A stretch of 64,000 nucleotides of DNA from Escherichia phage pEC-M719-6WT.2 (OQ845958.1), one strand, 5' to 3'. Positions 345 to 55,946 are shown, numbered from the stretch's first letter. The notes: generated by a model from the letters alone, not told the origin. Translations and numbers: made by a program.

Positions 345-2155
345 TAAGCAATCCTTACCCAGCGATGAGCAATCAAATATGGAGGCATTGTATAAACTGG
401 TTGAGCTTGAGGGTCTTGCGCCTGATTAATGGTGGCTTTGTCTTCTCTGTATTTGGTATAGGCTGGACCTTGTGCATCTGGGTCTACCTGACAACCACCG
501 ACAACAATCGGACCATTATCATCAACAACTAAAACCTTCTCATCAGTTTCAAGTTTAGGTACGTTTATATCTTTAATATGAACTTCAACGCTACCACCTG
601 TACCACCTGCTGTCGCTTGTGGGTTACCACCAGAATCCAGGTCATTATTGTTTGTATGGAAGTTTGAGGCAGGGTCGTCTGACCAGGCAACAATTACACG
701 TTCTTTCAAACGTTTCCATGAACCAAATCCCATATAAGTAACCGGGTTATTTGGGTTAACTGTATTTTCGTAAATTGTACCGACCGGATAGAATAATTCA
801 AAGATAGCGCCAACAGAAGATGGAACAACTTCCTGAAGACCGACTGGTTCAACGTTTGGTGCAAACGGATTATCAAAATCTGTAATACGCACACGACCGG
901 TTAGGCTTAACGTATTTCCCTGAGAAACATAAAGAGTATCAGTCTCATCACGGATTTCATCCATGGTCATAGTTGTGCCGATATCGTTATTGTACCAAAT
1001 GACCGACAGAATATCACCGTCTTCAAATTCACGGTAAATGCTAATGCCTTCGATACGGTTATCATCATCAAATTGCAGCAAATAATCCTGGTTTGATTCA
1101 GACCAGCTACCACCATTTGCACTACATTCTGCAGCAGTAGAACCTTGTGCACCTTCACAATAAAATACTGGAGTTCCCGCAGTACCAGCTTGATGTTGCA
1201 AAATACTGTTAATGAATACCTGACATGCGTTTGGGTTAATTGGGCTACCCGGAGAAATACCAAGTTCTTCAATTGTAAAGGTGTGTTTGGTTGTCAAATC
1301 TGTAACAATCAAAGAACCATTAATTGTTGTTTCTTTGGTCCTGTCTTGACTACGAACAAGTATATCACGACGATTATACGAACTACGCCATTGAGCAATA
1401 CCATCATTAAATGTTCGGATGATAACAGTATCACCTTCAGCACATGGCATTTTCAGACGGATGCTTTTACCATCAAGCGCAACGATTTCACCAGGGTTTG
1501 CACCAGGGGAACCAAATTCAGCATTCACCGGGTCGAAAATATCATCTTTACCATAAAACAGGTCGTTACCACGATGTTTGACTTCTAAGTTCGATACGCT
1601 ATATGGAATAGCACCAAACACATTGATAAAGTCAGTTTGTCCTTCGGTGGCAATAAACTGTTGGGATGCAACTGTGGCAACGTCGTTATTTGAAATTTTA
1701 TCGACTTGTTTATTATCGATATATTCCCAACGACCTGGTGAACAATATACAAGTTCAAGGTCAGCTAAGTTGCGTTTAATTTCTACTGGATTCGGTGAGC
1801 CTTTAATCGTATCCCCAACTGCAGGAACAATTGTCACCGGGTTGATTTGCCAGGTAGCAAACACATCACGCAAGCGAATTACATAATTGTATTCTTGAGT
1901 TGTTCCTTTTGGAAGGATAACTCGAACTGCACCGGCTGATGTATCGATGGTATAGCTTCGACCCATAACAGCGGACAACTCGGTGCCTTCTTGCGTAGTC
2001 CAAGTTTTCCATGCACCAGCTGCATGGGGATTTTCACCGTCCCCTAGCTGATAATAAAGGTCATCAAAGTTATTATTTATTTTTTGACCGCCGAGACGAA
2101 GGTAATCACCAGTACCATCATCAACCATATTGCCAATTTTTAAATTCTGTTTCAT
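344..2155 (-). CDS. 10: baseplate wedge protein gp10
   Basis: 603-aa ORF, length and position (between 9 and 11) as in T4; identity by synteny and recalled similarity, no alignment run. Confidence 0.8.
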   Translation of the reverse strand: MKQNLKIGNMVDDGTGDYLRLGGQKINNNFDDLYYQLGDGENPHAAGAWKTWTTQEGTELSAVMGRSYTIDTSAGAVRVILPKGTTQEYNYVIRLRDVFATWQINPVTIVPAVGDTIKGSPNPVEIKRNLADLELVYCSPGRWEYIDNKQVDKISNNDVATVASQQFIATEGQTDFINVFGAIPYSVSNLEVKHRGNDLFYGKDDIFDPVNAEFGSPGANPGEIVALDGKSIRLKMPCAEGDTVIIRTFNDGIAQWRSSYNRRDILVRSQDRTKETTINGSLIVTDLTTKHTFTIEELGISPGSPINPNACQVFINSILQHQAGTAGTPVFYCEGAQGSTAAECSANGGSWSESNQDYLLQFDDDNRIEGISIYREFEDGDILSVIWYNNDIGTTMTMDEIRDETDTLYVSQGNTLSLTGRVRITDFDNPFAPNVEPVGLQEVVPSSVGAIFELFYPVGTIYENTVNPNNPVTYMGFGSWKRLKERVIVAWSDDPASNFHTNNNDLDSGGNPQATAGGTGGSVEVHIKDINVPKLETDEKVLVVDDNGPIVVGGCQVDPDAQGPAYTKYREDKATINQAQDPQAQPVYTMPPYLIAHRWVRIA

Positions 2156-3024
2156 TATACCGGTACTCCGATTGTTTGGGCGGAAATTACTTTAATAGCG
2201 AGCTTCATGGCAGTGGGTGAGCTTATAGCCGCCTGTATGATGTCCTGGTTATCAATTCTAAAATCGATAGCATATATCTCATCATCGTCGTTAGCTTGTC
2301 CACGTCTGATTACAGCGTATTCTGTGCTATATACCTTGCGGTCCTTAAGGTCGATGTAAAGTAACATTTCTGATGCTTTGTATTTAGTTTCGTCTGTTGA
2401 AATAGCCGTAAGCATCAATTTGATAGTTTTATAATCTGCGCGGTAAGCGATTGGAATATCACGAACAACCGAGCTCATATTGTATGTTTTGTCGAGCAAT
2501 ACAGATTGGTTACCAAACATACTTTCAATTTTGTAGTCCCAGGTCCCTACGCCGTTAGCATCGTCAATACACCACAATGTAATTTTTGTATAAGGCTGAG
2601 TAAATTTCATTTTGTTCGTTGCAGCGGTCAGGAATGAATCCGTGCCTTGTAGTTCAACTTCCAGAGGCATCGAGGTGGATAATGAACCATTGGAGTTAAT
2701 AAAGATAACACCTTCGCCTGCTTTACCTTTTGCAATTCTTGCGGTGATAACACCTTCGGCAGTATTGACATCACGCATAGAACCGAGAGCAACAGTTGAG
2801 TTCCATTCGATGATATTTGTAGCTTTTTGATAGTACCCAGTCGCATGAAGGACCTGGGTGTTTTCTCCATTGTTCACAGAGTACAGACGCTGGTCGCCAA
2901 ATGTATTATACAAACTGTCTAAATCCACGTTCAGTTTACGACCGCCTTCATATAGAATATCACCGGTGCTGGCGTTACCAATCTCGCCGATGTCTACTAA
3001 TAATTTTGGGGTTTGATTAATCAT
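2155..3024 (-). CDS. 9: baseplate wedge protein gp9 (long tail fibre socket)
   Basis: 289-aa ORF, T4-like length and position; preceded on minus strand by TATAAATA late promoter. Confidence 0.8.
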   Translation of the reverse strand: MINQTPKLLVDIGEIGNASTGDILYEGGRKLNVDLDSLYNTFGDQRLYSVNNGENTQVLHATGYYQKATNIIEWNSTVALGSMRDVNTAEGVITARIAKGKAGEGVIFINSNGSLSTSMPLEVELQGTDSFLTAATNKMKFTQPYTKITLWCIDDANGVGTWDYKIESMFGNQSVLLDKTYNMSSVVRDIPIAYRADYKTIKLMLTAISTDETKYKASEMLLYIDLKDRKVYSTEYAVIRRGQANDDDEIYAIDFRIDNQDIIQAAISSPTAMKLAIKVISAQTIGVPV

Positions 3025-3050
3025 AGGTAAGCCTCGTTATTGATATAGCT

Positions 3051-3058
3051 ATATTTAT
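3051..3058 (-). promoter_or_regulatory. late promoter box TATAAATA upstream of gene 9
   Basis: exact T4 late-promoter octamer on minus strand, about 25 nt upstream of gene 9 ATG. Confidence 0.55.
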
Positions 3059-3063
3059 AGAAT

Positions 3064-3085
3064 AAAAAAGGGACCCGAAGGTCCC
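3064..3085 (-). terminator. rho-independent terminator after gene 8
   Basis: GGGACC-CGAA-GGTCCC hairpin followed by U6 on minus strand, between gene 8 stop and gene 9 promoter. Confidence 0.6.
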
Positions 3086-3088
3086 TAG

Positions 3089-4093
3089 TTAGAATTCAAA
3101 AATAATGTTAACTTCTTCTGTCTGGTCCATTGCACGAATAATTGGTGGGCGGTTTTCCATATAAATCATTTCCCCAGAATGACGGTCCAAATCAATTGCA
3201 TCGTAGTATTCTTTGATTGCTTTGACATTTGGGTCATTAGGATGTACTTTAACTTCAAGTGGGTTGGATATAATCGACAGCTGTCGGAAGCCTTTGTTTC
3301 CCGGGAGACTGAATTCTGGGAAGTAAATGGAATCCATAAATGCTTTAAATCTGATTGTATATCCTTTGATTCTATATATTAAACCGAAATCATCTTGTTG
3401 CCAGCTGATATTGTCTTTGTAACCCCAACGTGACGGGTCTTCTTCGATTTCTTCAGGCCATGGAACAACAATATATTCGTTAGTACAGCGGTTGATGGAT
3501 ACATCAGGCGGAATCTCATACAAATATTCCCAGAGATAACCATCGCCCATATCAACTCGTCCTTCAGTGTCGCCAGTCCCTGCTGGAGCTCTCGTCGAGT
3601 TATATTCTGCCGTCCATTTACCACCGAGTTTTAAGCACTCTTCTTTATTGATAATGGAATAAATGGAGCAAGTCCCAACATCAGGAACATCTACACAACG
3701 ATAAACCATCCAACCTTTACCAACATCAGTTCGGTTATATGGAGCACTGTTAGCTACAACAATTTCCCCTACCTGGAAGTTAAGCGGATTAGGATATCTG
3801 ATATCGCCCCAGTCTTTACGTGGGACAACACAATCAAGCATTGATTTATAAACTTTGACTGCCCCCATCATATTGGTCCAAGTATCTTCAACACCTTGTG
3901 CTGTATCAACTGGATAAGGAGGGGCGAACCCCGGGTCATTCTCATTCGAAGCCCAAGGTTCAGCACGACCGAATGTTACATACATCGTATTCTGGTCGGG
4001 CTCGTTACCAATCATTTTATAAAAGTTATACATTTTTTCAGTTCGAAATTTCGAGGTAATTATCGAACGATAAACTACAGATGAATTATTCAT
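3089..4093 (-). CDS. 8: baseplate wedge protein gp8
   Basis: 334-aa ORF; N-terminus MNNSSVVYRSIITSKFRTEKM matches recalled T4 gp8; same length as T4 gp8. Confidence 0.9.
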   Translation of the reverse strand: MNNSSVVYRSIITSKFRTEKMYNFYKMIGNEPDQNTMYVTFGRAEPWASNENDPGFAPPYPVDTAQGVEDTWTNMMGAVKVYKSMLDCVVPRKDWGDIRYPNPLNFQVGEIVVANSAPYNRTDVGKGWMVYRCVDVPDVGTCSIYSIINKEECLKLGGKWTAEYNSTRAPAGTGDTEGRVDMGDGYLWEYLYEIPPDVSINRCTNEYIVVPWPEEIEEDPSRWGYKDNISWQQDDFGLIYRIKGYTIRFKAFMDSIYFPEFSLPGNKGFRQLSIISNPLEVKVHPNDPNVKAIKEYYDAIDLDRHSGEMIYMENRPPIIRAMDQTEEVNIIFEF

Positions 4094-36185: not shown

Positions 36186-36368
36186 ATGTTAACTACTGAA
36201 CAGATTGAACAAATCCTTAAACTTGCTACTGCTATTGAACGCGATTCTTATGATATTGCAGTAGAACATTGTGAAGGCTATTCATATTCCGGAATAGAGC
36301 AGTGTAAACGAGATTTAGCGAATTCTAAAGCAGCATTGGTTGAGTATCTGAATGAGTTGAAAGAATAA
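36186..36368 (+). CDS. hypothetical protein
   Basis: 60-aa ORF. Confidence 0.45.
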   Translation: MLTTEQIEQILKLATAIERDSYDIAVEHCEGYSYSGIEQCKRDLANSKAALVEYLNELKE

Positions 36369-36625
36369 TGGCTGTTGGATTTGCAAAAGACGGAGCTGAA
36401 CAGCTAGAGATGGAAGCGGTTGTACAAGCCGCTATCACCCATGCGAGAGCACAAGTTGCAGTTGAAAGGGAGTCTGCTGAATTCTGTTTTGACTGCGACG
36501 AAAAAATTCCTGAAGCGCGGAGACAAGCGATTAGGGGTGTGATATATTGTGTTGGTTGTCAATCAATGCATGATGAAATTTTTAAACGTGAGCCACGAAA
36601 CTGTTGGCACAGGAGCATGAGATGA
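36368..36625 (+). CDS. TraR/DksA-like C4 zinc-finger protein
   Basis: CFDCDEKIPEARRQA...CVGCQ four-Cys finger. Confidence 0.6.
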   Translation: MAVGFAKDGAEQLEMEAVVQAAITHARAQVAVERESAEFCFDCDEKIPEARRQAIRGVIYCVGCQSMHDEIFKREPRNCWHRSMR

Positions 36626-45091: not shown

Positions 45092-45355
45092 ATGTTTAAA
45101 GTATATGGTTATGATTCATCTATTCATCGCTGTGTATTCTGCGATAATGCAAAACGTTTTTTGGATGTTAAAAAACAACCTTACGAGTTCATCAACGTTA
45201 TGCCAGAAAAAGGTGTGTTTGATGATGAGAAGATTGCCCAACTCCTGGCTGCACTTGGTCGCGAATCTCAAATTGGTTTGACCATGCCGCAAGTATTTGC
45301 TCCTGACGGAAGTCATATTGGCGGATTCACTGAACTGCGAGAATATTTTAAATGA
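45092..45355 (+). CDS. nrdC: glutaredoxin/thioredoxin NrdC
   Basis: 87 aa; MFKVYGYDSSIHRCVFCDNAKR...GLTMPQVFAPDGSHIGGF closely matches recalled T4 NrdC. Confidence 0.9.
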   Translation: MFKVYGYDSSIHRCVFCDNAKRFLDVKKQPYEFINVMPEKGVFDDEKIAQLLAALGRESQIGLTMPQVFAPDGSHIGGFTELREYFK

Positions 45356-45519
45356 TTGAATTATTGTTGGGTATTTTGTATCTTATCATCGGTATTGGTT
45401 ATGCTAAGACCCTAGCTAAAATAGATGATTTCGGTGCGGGTGACTTTTGTTGGTGGCTGACGTCTATGATTTGTTGGCCTTTATTTCTGGTTGGTGCTTC
45501 ATTCTGGAACTTTAAATGA
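45352..45519 (+). CDS. small membrane protein (55 aa)
   Basis: ATGA overlap with nrdC stop; hydrophobic; below ORF-track cutoff. Confidence 0.4.
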   Translation: MIELLLGILYLIIGIGYAKTLAKIDDFGAGDFCWWLTSMICWPLFLVGASFWNFK

Positions 45520-53904: not shown

Positions 53905-54216
53905 ATGCAAGCTCCAGATATTTCTCAACTGACCGATAAGCAGATTGAAGAAGCACAGGAACGTCTCGAAGAAGCGAACGCGCTCGAAGCACAGAGTCAA
54001 GCGGCAAAGATTCTGAAAAAGAATGCTCGTGAAATTGCACGACTGAATAAGCATGCTCAAGGGGCAGTGCTGGAAAACAATTTTGAAGCATACAAATATG
54101 CTTTAGTTAAACTGCGTGGAATTTACCGCCAACCAGTTACGGAAGACCTGATTAAGTTGATGTGGGAAACTACTCGCAAACAAATTTGGGAAATCGTAAA
54201 TGGCATTAGTAAATAA
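53905..54216 (+). CDS. hypothetical protein
   Basis: 103-aa helical ORF. Confidence 0.5.
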   Translation: MQAPDISQLTDKQIEEAQERLEEANALEAQSQAAKILKKNAREIARLNKHAQGAVLENNFEAYKYALVKLRGIYRQPVTEDLIKLMWETTRKQIWEIVNGISK

Positions 54217-54400
54217 ACCTTTTAAACGGCTTCTTGTTGGAGCCGCTTTCAGACTTCGCTCATATGGTAATATCTGTATCAAGCAGACTGAAACCGAATA
54301 TAAAATGGTTGGGCAGTATTCCGATGAAATTTTTCGGATTGAGCCTGTAGCCAAGGTTTGGGTGGATTCACATCAACTTAAGAAGTGGTGGCAACGATGA
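54200..54400 (+). CDS. hypothetical protein
   Basis: 66-aa ORF. Confidence 0.45.
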   Translation: MALVNKPFKRLLVGAAFRLRSYGNICIKQTETEYKMVGQYSDEIFRIEPVAKVWVDSHQLKKWWQR

Positions 54401-54555
54401 TAACATGGACTGCTGGTTAATGAATGACGAATACGAAAAAGTTTAAGAGGTGTATTATGACTATTGATGATGTAGATATTCTTACTTCCGACGAATTAAA
54501 ACGATTGGGTAATATATTTCAAGACGAACATCCTGATTTTTAAGAGGTCATATGA

Positions 54556-54729
54556 ATGACGAATTCGACGGATTTTGATAAGATTAAATCTGATAAAAAT
54601 GAGATGATACTTCAATTTGAAGCCGCTCGTATTAAAGCAGAAAATGAAGGTACTATTAAATATAAGCCTATCAAGTTCAGGTCTTCTCATGAACCTCTGT
54701 ATGGTGTATTAATTGGAAAGGAAGCCTAG
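54556..54729 (+). CDS. small hypothetical protein (57 aa)
   Basis: ATG after SD AAGAGG; followed by terminator. Confidence 0.4.
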   Translation: MTNSTDFDKIKSDKNEMILQFEAARIKAENEGTIKYKPIKFRSSHEPLYGVLIGKEA

Positions 54730-54743
54730 TGCTTCCTTTTTTG
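54720..54743 (+). terminator. rho-independent terminator
   Basis: GGAAGC-ctagt-GCTTCC followed by TTTTTT. Confidence 0.7.
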
Positions 54744-54786
54744 CTTTATATTCGGGATGATAAAATGAACCAACTGAGGAGAGTAT

Positions 54787-54930
54787 ATGGTATTATTTTT
54801 AGGATATGTCGTGTTATTCATGGCATTCTACACATTCACACGAGCTTGTTGGATAGGATTCTTTTCTACTCCCGACGGGTTCATTTCAATAATTTTATTT
54901 TGCACTGCGATAACGGCGCTTGGCTTATGA
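54787..54930 (+). CDS. candidate 47-aa hydrophobic peptide coupled to gene 47
   Basis: ATG after SD GAGGAGAG; stop overlaps gene 47 ATG (ATGA); out of frame with the spurious upstream extension of gene 47. Confidence 0.35.
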   Translation: MVLFLGYVVLFMAFYTFTRACWIGFFSTPDGFISIILFCTAITALGL

Positions 54931-55946
54931 AAATTTTAAATTTAGGCGATTGGCACTTGGGTGTCAAAGCTGACGACCCATGGGCTCAAAACATTCAACG
55001 TGATGGTATTTTACAGGCGATTGCATATTCCAAAGCGAATGGAATTAAAGTCTGGATTCAATATGGTGATATTTTTGACGTCCGTAAGGCCGTAACGCAT
55101 AAGACAATGGAATTCAGCCGCGAGATTATGGAACTCCTTCGTGAAGCAGGAATTACTATGCACACGATAGTCGGGAACCATGACATGAATCTGAAGAATA
55201 AGATTCATCCTAATGCTATCACTGAACTCCTGAATAAGTATGACCATGTTAAAATCTACGACAAGCCAACGACTGTTGATTTTGACGGTTGTCAGATTGA
55301 TATGATTCCATGGATGTGTGACGAGAACGCGACTGACATTCATCAACACATCAAAACTTCTGGTGCCGAATATTGCATCGGTCACTGGGAATTAACCGGG
55401 TTTTATTTCTATAAAGGATTGAAATCCCATGGGCTTGAGCCCGATTTCCTTAAGAAGTACAAGCAAGTTTGGTCTGGGCACTTCCATACCATTTCGGAAG
55501 CTGCGAACGTTAAGTACATAGGGACACCATGGACATTAACAGCAGGTGATGAGAATGACCCGCGCGGATTCTGGGAATTTGATACAGAAACCGAAGAGAT
55601 GAAATTTATTCCGAATGAAACCACCTGGCATCGGAAGATTTTTTATCCAAACGAAACTATTAACTACGACGACTTCAAAGACTTATCAGTCCGTGTTATT
55701 GTAGAAAAAGTCGATAAAGACCTGACCAAGTTCGAATCTGAATTAGAAAAGCGTGTACATGAATTGCGTGTTGTCAATAAGGTTGATAACAGTGTTGATA
55801 CGACTGACTCCGAAGAAGAGTTAGACATAAAACGCTTAACTGATATGATGGCAGAATATATTGATGCATTACCTGACACCAATGAGAAAGAATCAAAAGC
55901 TCTTAAAGCATTGGCCAACAAATTATATCTTGAGGTGCAACCGTGA
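54927..55946 (+). CDS. 47: recombination endonuclease subunit gp47 (Mre11-like)
   Basis: MKILNLGDWHLGVKADD...IQYGDIFDVRK...GNHD... matches recalled T4 gp47; 339 aa from internal ATG. Confidence 0.9.
   Translation: MKILNLGDWHLGVKADDPWAQNIQRDGILQAIAYSKANGIKVWIQYGDIFDVRKAVTHKTMEFSREIMELLREAGITMHTIVGNHDMNLKNKIHPNAITELLNKYDHVKIYDKPTTVDFDGCQIDMIPWMCDENATDIHQHIKTSGAEYCIGHWELTGFYFYKGLKSHGLEPDFLKKYKQVWSGHFHTISEAANVKYIGTPWTLTAGDENDPRGFWEFDTETEEMKFIPNETTWHRKIFYPNETINYDDFKDLSVRVIVEKVDKDLTKFESELEKRVHELRVVNKVDNSVDTTDSEEELDIKRLTDMMAEYIDALPDTNEKESKALKALANKLYLEVQP

Follow-up and report, generated by a model that had tools for sequence, protein, structure and literature searches.

Overlapping gene pairs in which translation terminates and reinitiates at an AUGA junction are common in T-even phages and in bacterial operons. 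In such pairs the genes share 4 nucleotides (nt), the upstream gene has a strong Shine-Dalgarno (SD) sequence, and the downstream gene has none; in classical coupling, a hairpin masks the downstream start. Bacteria also encode small inner membrane proteins beside a larger partner, such as KdpF, CydX, and AcrZ, which are 30 to 50 amino acids (aa) long, consist almost entirely of hydrophobic helix, are linked to their neighbor, and are often missed by gene callers. Phage T4 makes small, hydrophobic membrane proteins with known roles (Imm, Ac, and the holin/antiholin) before or during DNA replication. T4 gene 47.1 encodes another small, conserved protein of this phage, probably a membrane protein: its product is annotated as a "hypothetical predicted membrane protein," a second T4 record agrees, and a full-text literature search on T4 47.1/gp47.1 found no paper discussing its function. 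An omics study of T4 found the 47.1 transcript and assigned it to the early class but did not detect the protein, which has no UniProt identifier in that work (PMC9697503, Table S2).

Here, we examined a 64,000-nt stretch of the genome of Escherichia phage pEC-M719-6WT.2 (OQ845958.1), hereafter called the window, in which an earlier note had claimed a hydrophobic micro-ORF translationally coupled to gene 47 and hidden under a spurious extension of that gene. The phage is of the T-even type and belongs with JS98 and VR7 (Dhakavirus/Gaprivervirus); the closest DNA relative of the window is Escherichia phage ECML-359 (99.0%; OL631482.1). Genes are arranged in the order 55, homologs of a-gt.5/.4/.3/.2, 47.1, 47, 46.2, 46.1, and 46, identical to that of JS98. 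The micro-ORF, with its SD, its 47-aa hydrophobic product, and its ATGA junction, was present as described (Table 1) and lies directly 5′ of gene 47 and 3′ of the a-gt.2 block; its translation is MVLFLGYVVLFMAFYTFTRACWIGFFSTPDGFISIILFCTAITALGL. T4 differs from the window in that mobB and a-gt (alpha-glucosyltransferase) stand between a-gt.2 and 47.1. The window has neither gene (54216-54556 and 54729-54787), and the a-gt.2 stop leads directly into the terminator, the promoter, and 47.1. We also observed that several GenBank records, those of UPEC07, RZ RefSeq, P8, and Merlin (CPT_Merlin61), name the a-gt.2 homolog either "head maturation protease" or "prohead core protein protease." The profile bearing the protease name matches it weakly (phrog_17354, E = 8e-8) compared with phrog_2140 (unknown function, E = 3e-31), and the label is probably a propagated misannotation.

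Table 1. Coordinates of features at the 47.1-gene 47 locus, of the two other micro-ORFs, and of related elements in other phages (window positions unless a locus is named).
Feature	Coordinates	Strand	Evidence or remark
a-gt.2 homolog, 57 aa	54556..54729	+	PHROG 2140; TAG stop 54727-54729
Terminator-like hairpin GGAAAGGAAGC-CTAGT-GCTTCCTTTTT and T run	54715..54745	+	Directly 3′ of a-gt.2 homolog
T4-type middle-promoter motif	54742..54766	+	MotA box TGCTTTA 54742-54748, N12, −10 TAAAAT 54761-54766
SD GAGGAGAG of 47.1	54776..54783	+	AGGAG core ends 5 nt before ATG
47.1 homolog, 47 aa	54787..54930	+	ATG 54787-54789, TGA 54928-54930
ATGA stop/start overlap of 47.1 and gene 47, proposed termination-reinitiation site	54927..54930	+	Sequence
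Gene 47, Mre11/SbcD-like recombination nuclease subunit, 339 aa	54927..55946	+	Pfam Metallophos, tblastn
Spurious 66-codon GTG extension of gene 47	54729..54926	+	Frame closed in relatives
Second micro-ORF, 31 aa, one hydrophobic segment	36622..36717	+	PHROG 12165
Third micro-ORF, 55 aa, two hydrophobic segments	45352..45519	+	PHROG 6756
Homing endonuclease gene	AndreasVesalius locus 1941-2564; GiZh locus about 1641-2264		Unannotated in GiZh
Vequintavirinae-like 47.1 copies	Two extracted loci: 601-735; about 1742-1885

The micro-ORF is almost certainly a real ortholog of T4 gene 47.1. About 606 phage genomes carry the ORF intact. By tblastn, its peptide matched 608 phage records, and in 606 of these the alignment covered 80% or more of the peptide, with identities of 74.5% for T4 and 91.5% for JS98, both over 100% of the query; in a codon alignment, window and T4 were 78% identical over 46 shared positions. 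The T4 protein is of nearly the same length (46 versus 47 aa) and has the conserved core RACWIGFFSTPDG in common with that of the window, and its gene likewise lies directly 5′ of gene 47 with an ATGA overlap, downstream of a terminator and a MotA-box promoter. This 13-residue core, RACW[IV]GFFSTPDG, is conserved, with rare changes (R to K, S to F, and D to N) in single relatives, and 24 of the 47 alignment columns are invariant. PHROG 6693 (unknown function) covers the entire protein (E = 3.8e-30, residues 1 to 47 against positions 1 to 47 of a 47-position profile). The JS98 record names the ORF gp47.1, and the Merlin and Virsaitis27 records list a hypothetical protein. Given the T4 reference annotation and a PHROG of its own, 47.1 is already known; since the ORF is catalogued, its detection here is a rediscovery, which matters little as a finding and serves as a useful annotation correction for this genome.

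Beyond these phages, the family appears isolated. Pfam and NCBIfam models gave no match to 47.1, and a word-indexed search of 5.8 billion proteins returned only six close clusters. When 1.84 billion representatives were searched with a profile, only the cluster of 47.1 itself and two further matches were returned. We rejected these two as spurious because they were fragmentary, spanning 9 to 14 profile residues in much longer proteins. These searches provided no link to any characterized family, which indicates that 47.1 constitutes a compact, phage-restricted family. 47.1 resembles the KdpF, CydX, and AcrZ type in size, hydrophobicity, tight linkage to a neighbor, and frequent omission by gene callers, but shares no sequence similarity with it, and its neighbor gp47 is a soluble nuclease subunit rather than a membrane complex. 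It is likewise small and hydrophobic as are Imm, Ac, and the holins, but homology to characterized families was not detected in PHROGs, Pfam, or NCBIfam.

Conservation of the frame in relatives had been proposed as a check on the micro-ORF. The frame is kept across Tequatrovirus, Dhakavirus/Gaprivervirus, Moonvirus, and Winklervirus under strong amino acid constraint, with 0 stops in all six sequences compared and an intact ORF of 46 to 47 aa in 16 of 16 IMG/VR loci. Pairwise dN/dS, calculated by NG86 with the window as reference, was 0.11 against T4 (dS 1.5), 0.22 against JS98, 0.24 against Virsaitis27, 0.32 against Merlin, and 0.07 against a copy from Vequintavirinae-like phages; the overall in-frame range of 0.07 to 0.36 reflects purifying selection. 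In the same alignments, the two other frames gave values of 1.0 to 3.7, except for one frame in the closest pair, window versus JS98 (0.26). Variable columns were distributed 26/13/42 over codon positions 1/2/3. The gp47 omega for window versus T4 is 0.09, close to that of 47.1, so the microprotein is about as strongly constrained as the adjoining enzyme. From this parity with gp47 in amino acid conservation, we conclude that the 47.1 peptide has a sequence-dependent role of its own.

Gene 47 itself encodes a protein of 339 aa whose true start is MKILNLGDWHLG, with the ATG at 54927-54929. Its product contains a Pfam Metallophos domain (E = 5.9e-7), and tblastn matched it to 2,490 phage records, in which the protein is named gp47, recombination endonuclease subunit, or SbcD-like. 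In a mechanical ORF list, gene 47 instead runs from a GTG (54729..55946, 405 aa), 66 codons longer than this protein. Were this 405-aa form (or a 393-aa form starting at an ATG) the real product, the micro-ORF would be a chance overlapping frame, and in the window the gp47 frame is indeed open for 78 codons 5′ of its ATG. However, the same frame closes after 17 codons in JS98 and after 1 in T4, Merlin, and Virsaitis27, and it contains one to three stops across the 47.1 stretch in these four phages. It is also unconstrained there (omega 1.3 to 3.7 in 4 of 5 pairs); the constraint belongs to the 47.1 frame, and all relatives compared begin gp47 at the pattern MKI..GD.H. The GTG (54729-54731) shares one base with the a-gt.2 stop and stands in the terminator loop, at its boundary with the stem, 5′ of both the promoter motif and the predicted transcript start. 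The chance that the long form is a real product is negligible. The extension is spurious, as had been claimed, and the upstream frame of gene 47 is open by chance in the window.

The 47.1 product is very probably a membrane protein. Its GRAVY of 1.63 is the highest among the 101 ATG-initiated ORFs of 40 to 60 aa in the six frames of the window, and its only charged residues are R19 and D30, with hydrophobic stretches at residues 1 to 17 and 32 to 47. An AlphaFold2 model, built from a seven-sequence alignment and of only moderate confidence (mean pLDDT 70), places helices at residues 2 to 24 and 29 to 44 with an STPDG turn between them. The most likely form of 47.1 would be a hairpin of two helices inserted in the inner membrane of the host. 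The failure to detect the T4 protein in the omics study is weak negative evidence, since 47.1 yields only two tryptic peptides, both very hydrophobic.

We compared the signals upstream of 47.1 with those of T4 and its relatives. The TAG stop of the a-gt.2 homolog sits within the loop of the terminator-like hairpin, and a hairpin with a T run was found at the matching position in T4, JS98, Merlin, Virsaitis27, SSE1, and PhiKpNIH-6; a terminator is annotated at this position in the records of Merlin, PhiKpNIH-6, and GiZh. Middle promoters of T4 follow a consensus of (a/t)(a/t)(a/t)TGCTTtA, 12 ± 1 bp, and -12TAtaaT-7 (PMC2988021). The window agrees with it at 54739-54766 (TTTTGCTTTA-N12-TAAAAT), with a predicted transcript start at about 54773. 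In T4, the motif preceding 47.1 reads aGCTTTA-N12-TATAAT, and the last two bases of its −10 element are the AT of the 47.1 ATG. The start predicted from this motif, 36576, coincides with the mapped P47 start (PMC2988021, Table 1), which identifies the motif as the experimentally mapped P47; this start lies 8 nt inside the 47.1 coding sequence (36584..36444; AF158101). The window motif would be the equivalent of T4 P47, its use as a promoter in this phage being predicted from the sequence. The distance between promoter and gene differs: the −10 element overlaps the 47.1 ATG in T4 and lies 20 nt upstream of it in the window, as it does in JS98, where the MotA-box motif has an 11-nt spacer. With a start at about 54773, the SD and the whole of 47.1 should be included in the window's middle transcript. 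47.1 would thus be present on the middle transcript in the window phage, and only on read-through RNA in T4. A minus-strand sigma-70-like site (TTGACA-17-TAAATT, 54967-54939) was also observed inside the 5′ end of gene 47, directed back over 47.1; it is probably due to chance (1 match versus 3.3 expected in shuffles).

In phages without 47.1 (the Mosigvirus SSE1 and the Marfavirus PhiKpNIH-6), the same terminator, MotA box, −10 element, and SD are followed directly by gene 47. In SSE1, these signals serve gp47 itself, so the position that 47.1 fills is that of the gp47 leader. This arrangement raises the idea that 47.1 is a regulatory upstream ORF in which only the act of translation matters and the peptide is irrelevant: it lies between the promoter and gene 47, the only strong SD is its own, and in many relatives lacking 47.1 the same SD serves gp47. 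Such a leader would not be expected to maintain a dN/dS of about 0.1 over the whole peptide while synonymous sites are saturated, or a conserved 13-residue core. Moreover, some members of the family do not adjoin gene 47. In five Vequintavirinae-like phages (UPEC06, A7_1, LTH01, A73, and A5-4), a 47.1 homolog with the core FTRACWIGFFSTPDG intact is flanked by a 78-aa ORF and a YbiA/COG3236 gene, remote from any gene 47, and each of the 6 sites that vary among these phages is synonymous. In view of the amino acid constraint and the homolog outside the gene 47 context, we rejected the leader-only reading, which we regard as highly improbable. The presence of the homolog next to an unrelated gene further implies that the role of the peptide is not tied to gp47.

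In the Vequintavirinae-like copy, ATG, GTG, and TTG starts were sought in frame, and none was found; an ATC is aligned to the JS98 ATG, with GGGAG 8 nt upstream. Relative to the upstream ORF, the copy is in the −1 frame, and a GAAAAAT run lies beside it. None of the five records annotates it, and in A7_1, A73, and A5-4 a coding sequence in another frame covers it.

The 47.1/47 pair has the features of a coupled AUGA pair: the 4-nt overlap, an upstream gene with a strong SD, and a downstream gene without one. An ATGA junction was found in all 21 loci where 47.1 abuts gene 47 (5 plus 16 from IMG/VR). Expressed as anti-SD pairing energy, SD strength at 47.1 is −9.2 kcal/mol in the window and −6.0 to −9.3 kcal/mol across loci. 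The corresponding value for gp47 is −1.7 kcal/mol in the window, equivalent to no SD, and −1.7 to −3.0 kcal/mol at every locus with 47.1 adjoining (the window, T4, JS98, Merlin, Virsaitis27, and the 16 IMG/VR loci). For reference, the window medians are −2.1 kcal/mol for random positions, only 5% of which reach −6 kcal/mol or lower, and −5.05 kcal/mol for gene starts (n = 96). In seven of eight sampled genera lacking 47.1, gp47 has an SD of −4.0 to −8.2 kcal/mol. The exception is MP1 (−3.0 kcal/mol), in which the conserved MKI start of gp47 lies only 2 nt past the TAA of the upstream gene (TAATTATG).

A third state is provided by phages in which the two genes are separated. AndreasVesalius and GiZh carry, precisely between 47.1 and 47, a homing endonuclease gene of 207 aa (judged GIY-YIG-like by eye). 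This gene takes over the ATGA start, and its 3′ end provides gp47 with the SD AGGATGG (−6.4 kcal/mol). The gp47 SD is thus lost where 47.1 abuts the gene, retained where 47.1 is absent, and resupplied where the endonuclease intervenes, a three-way pattern that is predicted if gp47 depends on ribosomes arriving from 47.1. These comparative states constitute a clean natural experiment on the coupling of an Mre11-like subunit. At its 3′ end, the endonuclease gene shares 23 nt with gene 47. Insertion of this gene at the 47.1/47 junction is seen in some tequatroviruses, and several other records (a51, 121/2022-2B, and REP2) list a homing or HNH endonuclease there.

The window shows a sharp mosaic boundary with JS98 at about 54915-54930. 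Identity between the two is 90 to 97% over a-gt.2, the regulatory region, and 47.1, and 55 to 85% throughout gene 47 (dS saturated); other relatives hold 92 to 100% identity across both sides. The breakpoint coincides with the junction that the homing endonuclease gene occupies in other phages.

Coupling need not be the reason for the overlap. 47.1 could be a real membrane protein whose ATGA junction reflects genome compaction, with gp47 initiated independently and little affected by 47.1 translation. ATGA overlaps are common in the window genome, and about 20% of its gene starts (from a crude ORF map) have an SD of −3 kcal/mol or weaker. The gp47 AUG is not masked by secondary structure: no masking hairpin was predicted there in five phages (folding versus shuffles, z = +0.1 to +1.7), and its surroundings are unstructured and A/U-rich, making some direct initiation plausible. 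The T4 P47 transcript, furthermore, begins 8 nt inside 47.1 and yet must express gp47, so T4 middle transcripts express gp47 without translating 47.1, and coupling cannot be obligatory in T4. All eight sampled genera outside the 47.1-bearing group likewise make gp47 without any 47.1. Against compaction stands the systematic nature of the SD swap: gp47 lacks an SD in 21 of 21 loci abutted by 47.1, but has one in most loci lacking 47.1 and where the homing endonuclease intervenes. We therefore consider independent initiation a possible but less probable account of the overlap. On the sequence comparisons, we lean toward coupling to 47.1 contributing materially to gp47 synthesis. The earlier claim of coupling fits the presence and absence of SDs across relatives.

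Taken together, the observations are likely best explained by a 47.1 ortholog that forms a membrane hairpin and is coupled to gp47. In the window phage, 47.1 would be the first cistron of a P47-type middle transcript and would also be present on RNA that reads through from upstream. 47.1 alone has a good ribosome-binding site 5′ of gene 47, and ribosomes ending 47.1 at the UGA of the AUGA may reinitiate at the gene 47 AUG, which overlaps this UGA and lacks an SD. Because no hairpin masks this AUG, the mechanism would be termination-reinitiation rather than the unmasking of classical coupling. Translation of 47.1 would in this way determine a large part of the supply of gp47, the Mre11-like nuclease subunit.

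We also considered a functional link between the two products, in which 47.1 would tether the gp46/gp47 (Rad50/Mre11-like) nuclease to the membrane or regulate it. If this were true, 47.1, synthesized in cis and concurrently with gp47, would bring the complex to the inner membrane. Presence and absence data make an obligatory tether unlikely: gp46/47 occurs without 47.1 in many T4-like genera, a homing endonuclease gene can separate 47.1 from 47, and the Vequintavirinae-like homolog lies beside a YbiA-like gene. Overall, we judge a role of 47.1 as tether or regulator to be improbable.

Small membrane peptides of this kind had been described as usually missed by annotation. This was partly borne out: roughly half of the sampled records omit 47.1 (a separate feature was present in roughly 26 of 56 annotated records, from 60 sampled and judged by the feature names), but T4, JS98, and Merlin annotate it. 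Some gene callers could extend gene 47 over 47.1. The ECML-359 record annotates neither 47.1 nor gene 47 (locus 1830-3901), with 170 features for 169 kb.

Two similar micro-ORFs had been described elsewhere in the window, and both are present, conserved, and each assigned to a PHROG of unknown function. The 31-aa ORF has an ATGA overlap with an upstream DksA-like ORF (36368..36625) and was found in 103 phage records at 84 to 100% identity (PHROG E = 8e-25). The 55-aa ORF shares ATGA overlaps with both neighbors, an NrdC-like ORF at 45092..45355 on its upstream side and the ORF that starts at 45516 on its downstream side, and was found in about 100 phage records (PHROG E = 7e-30).
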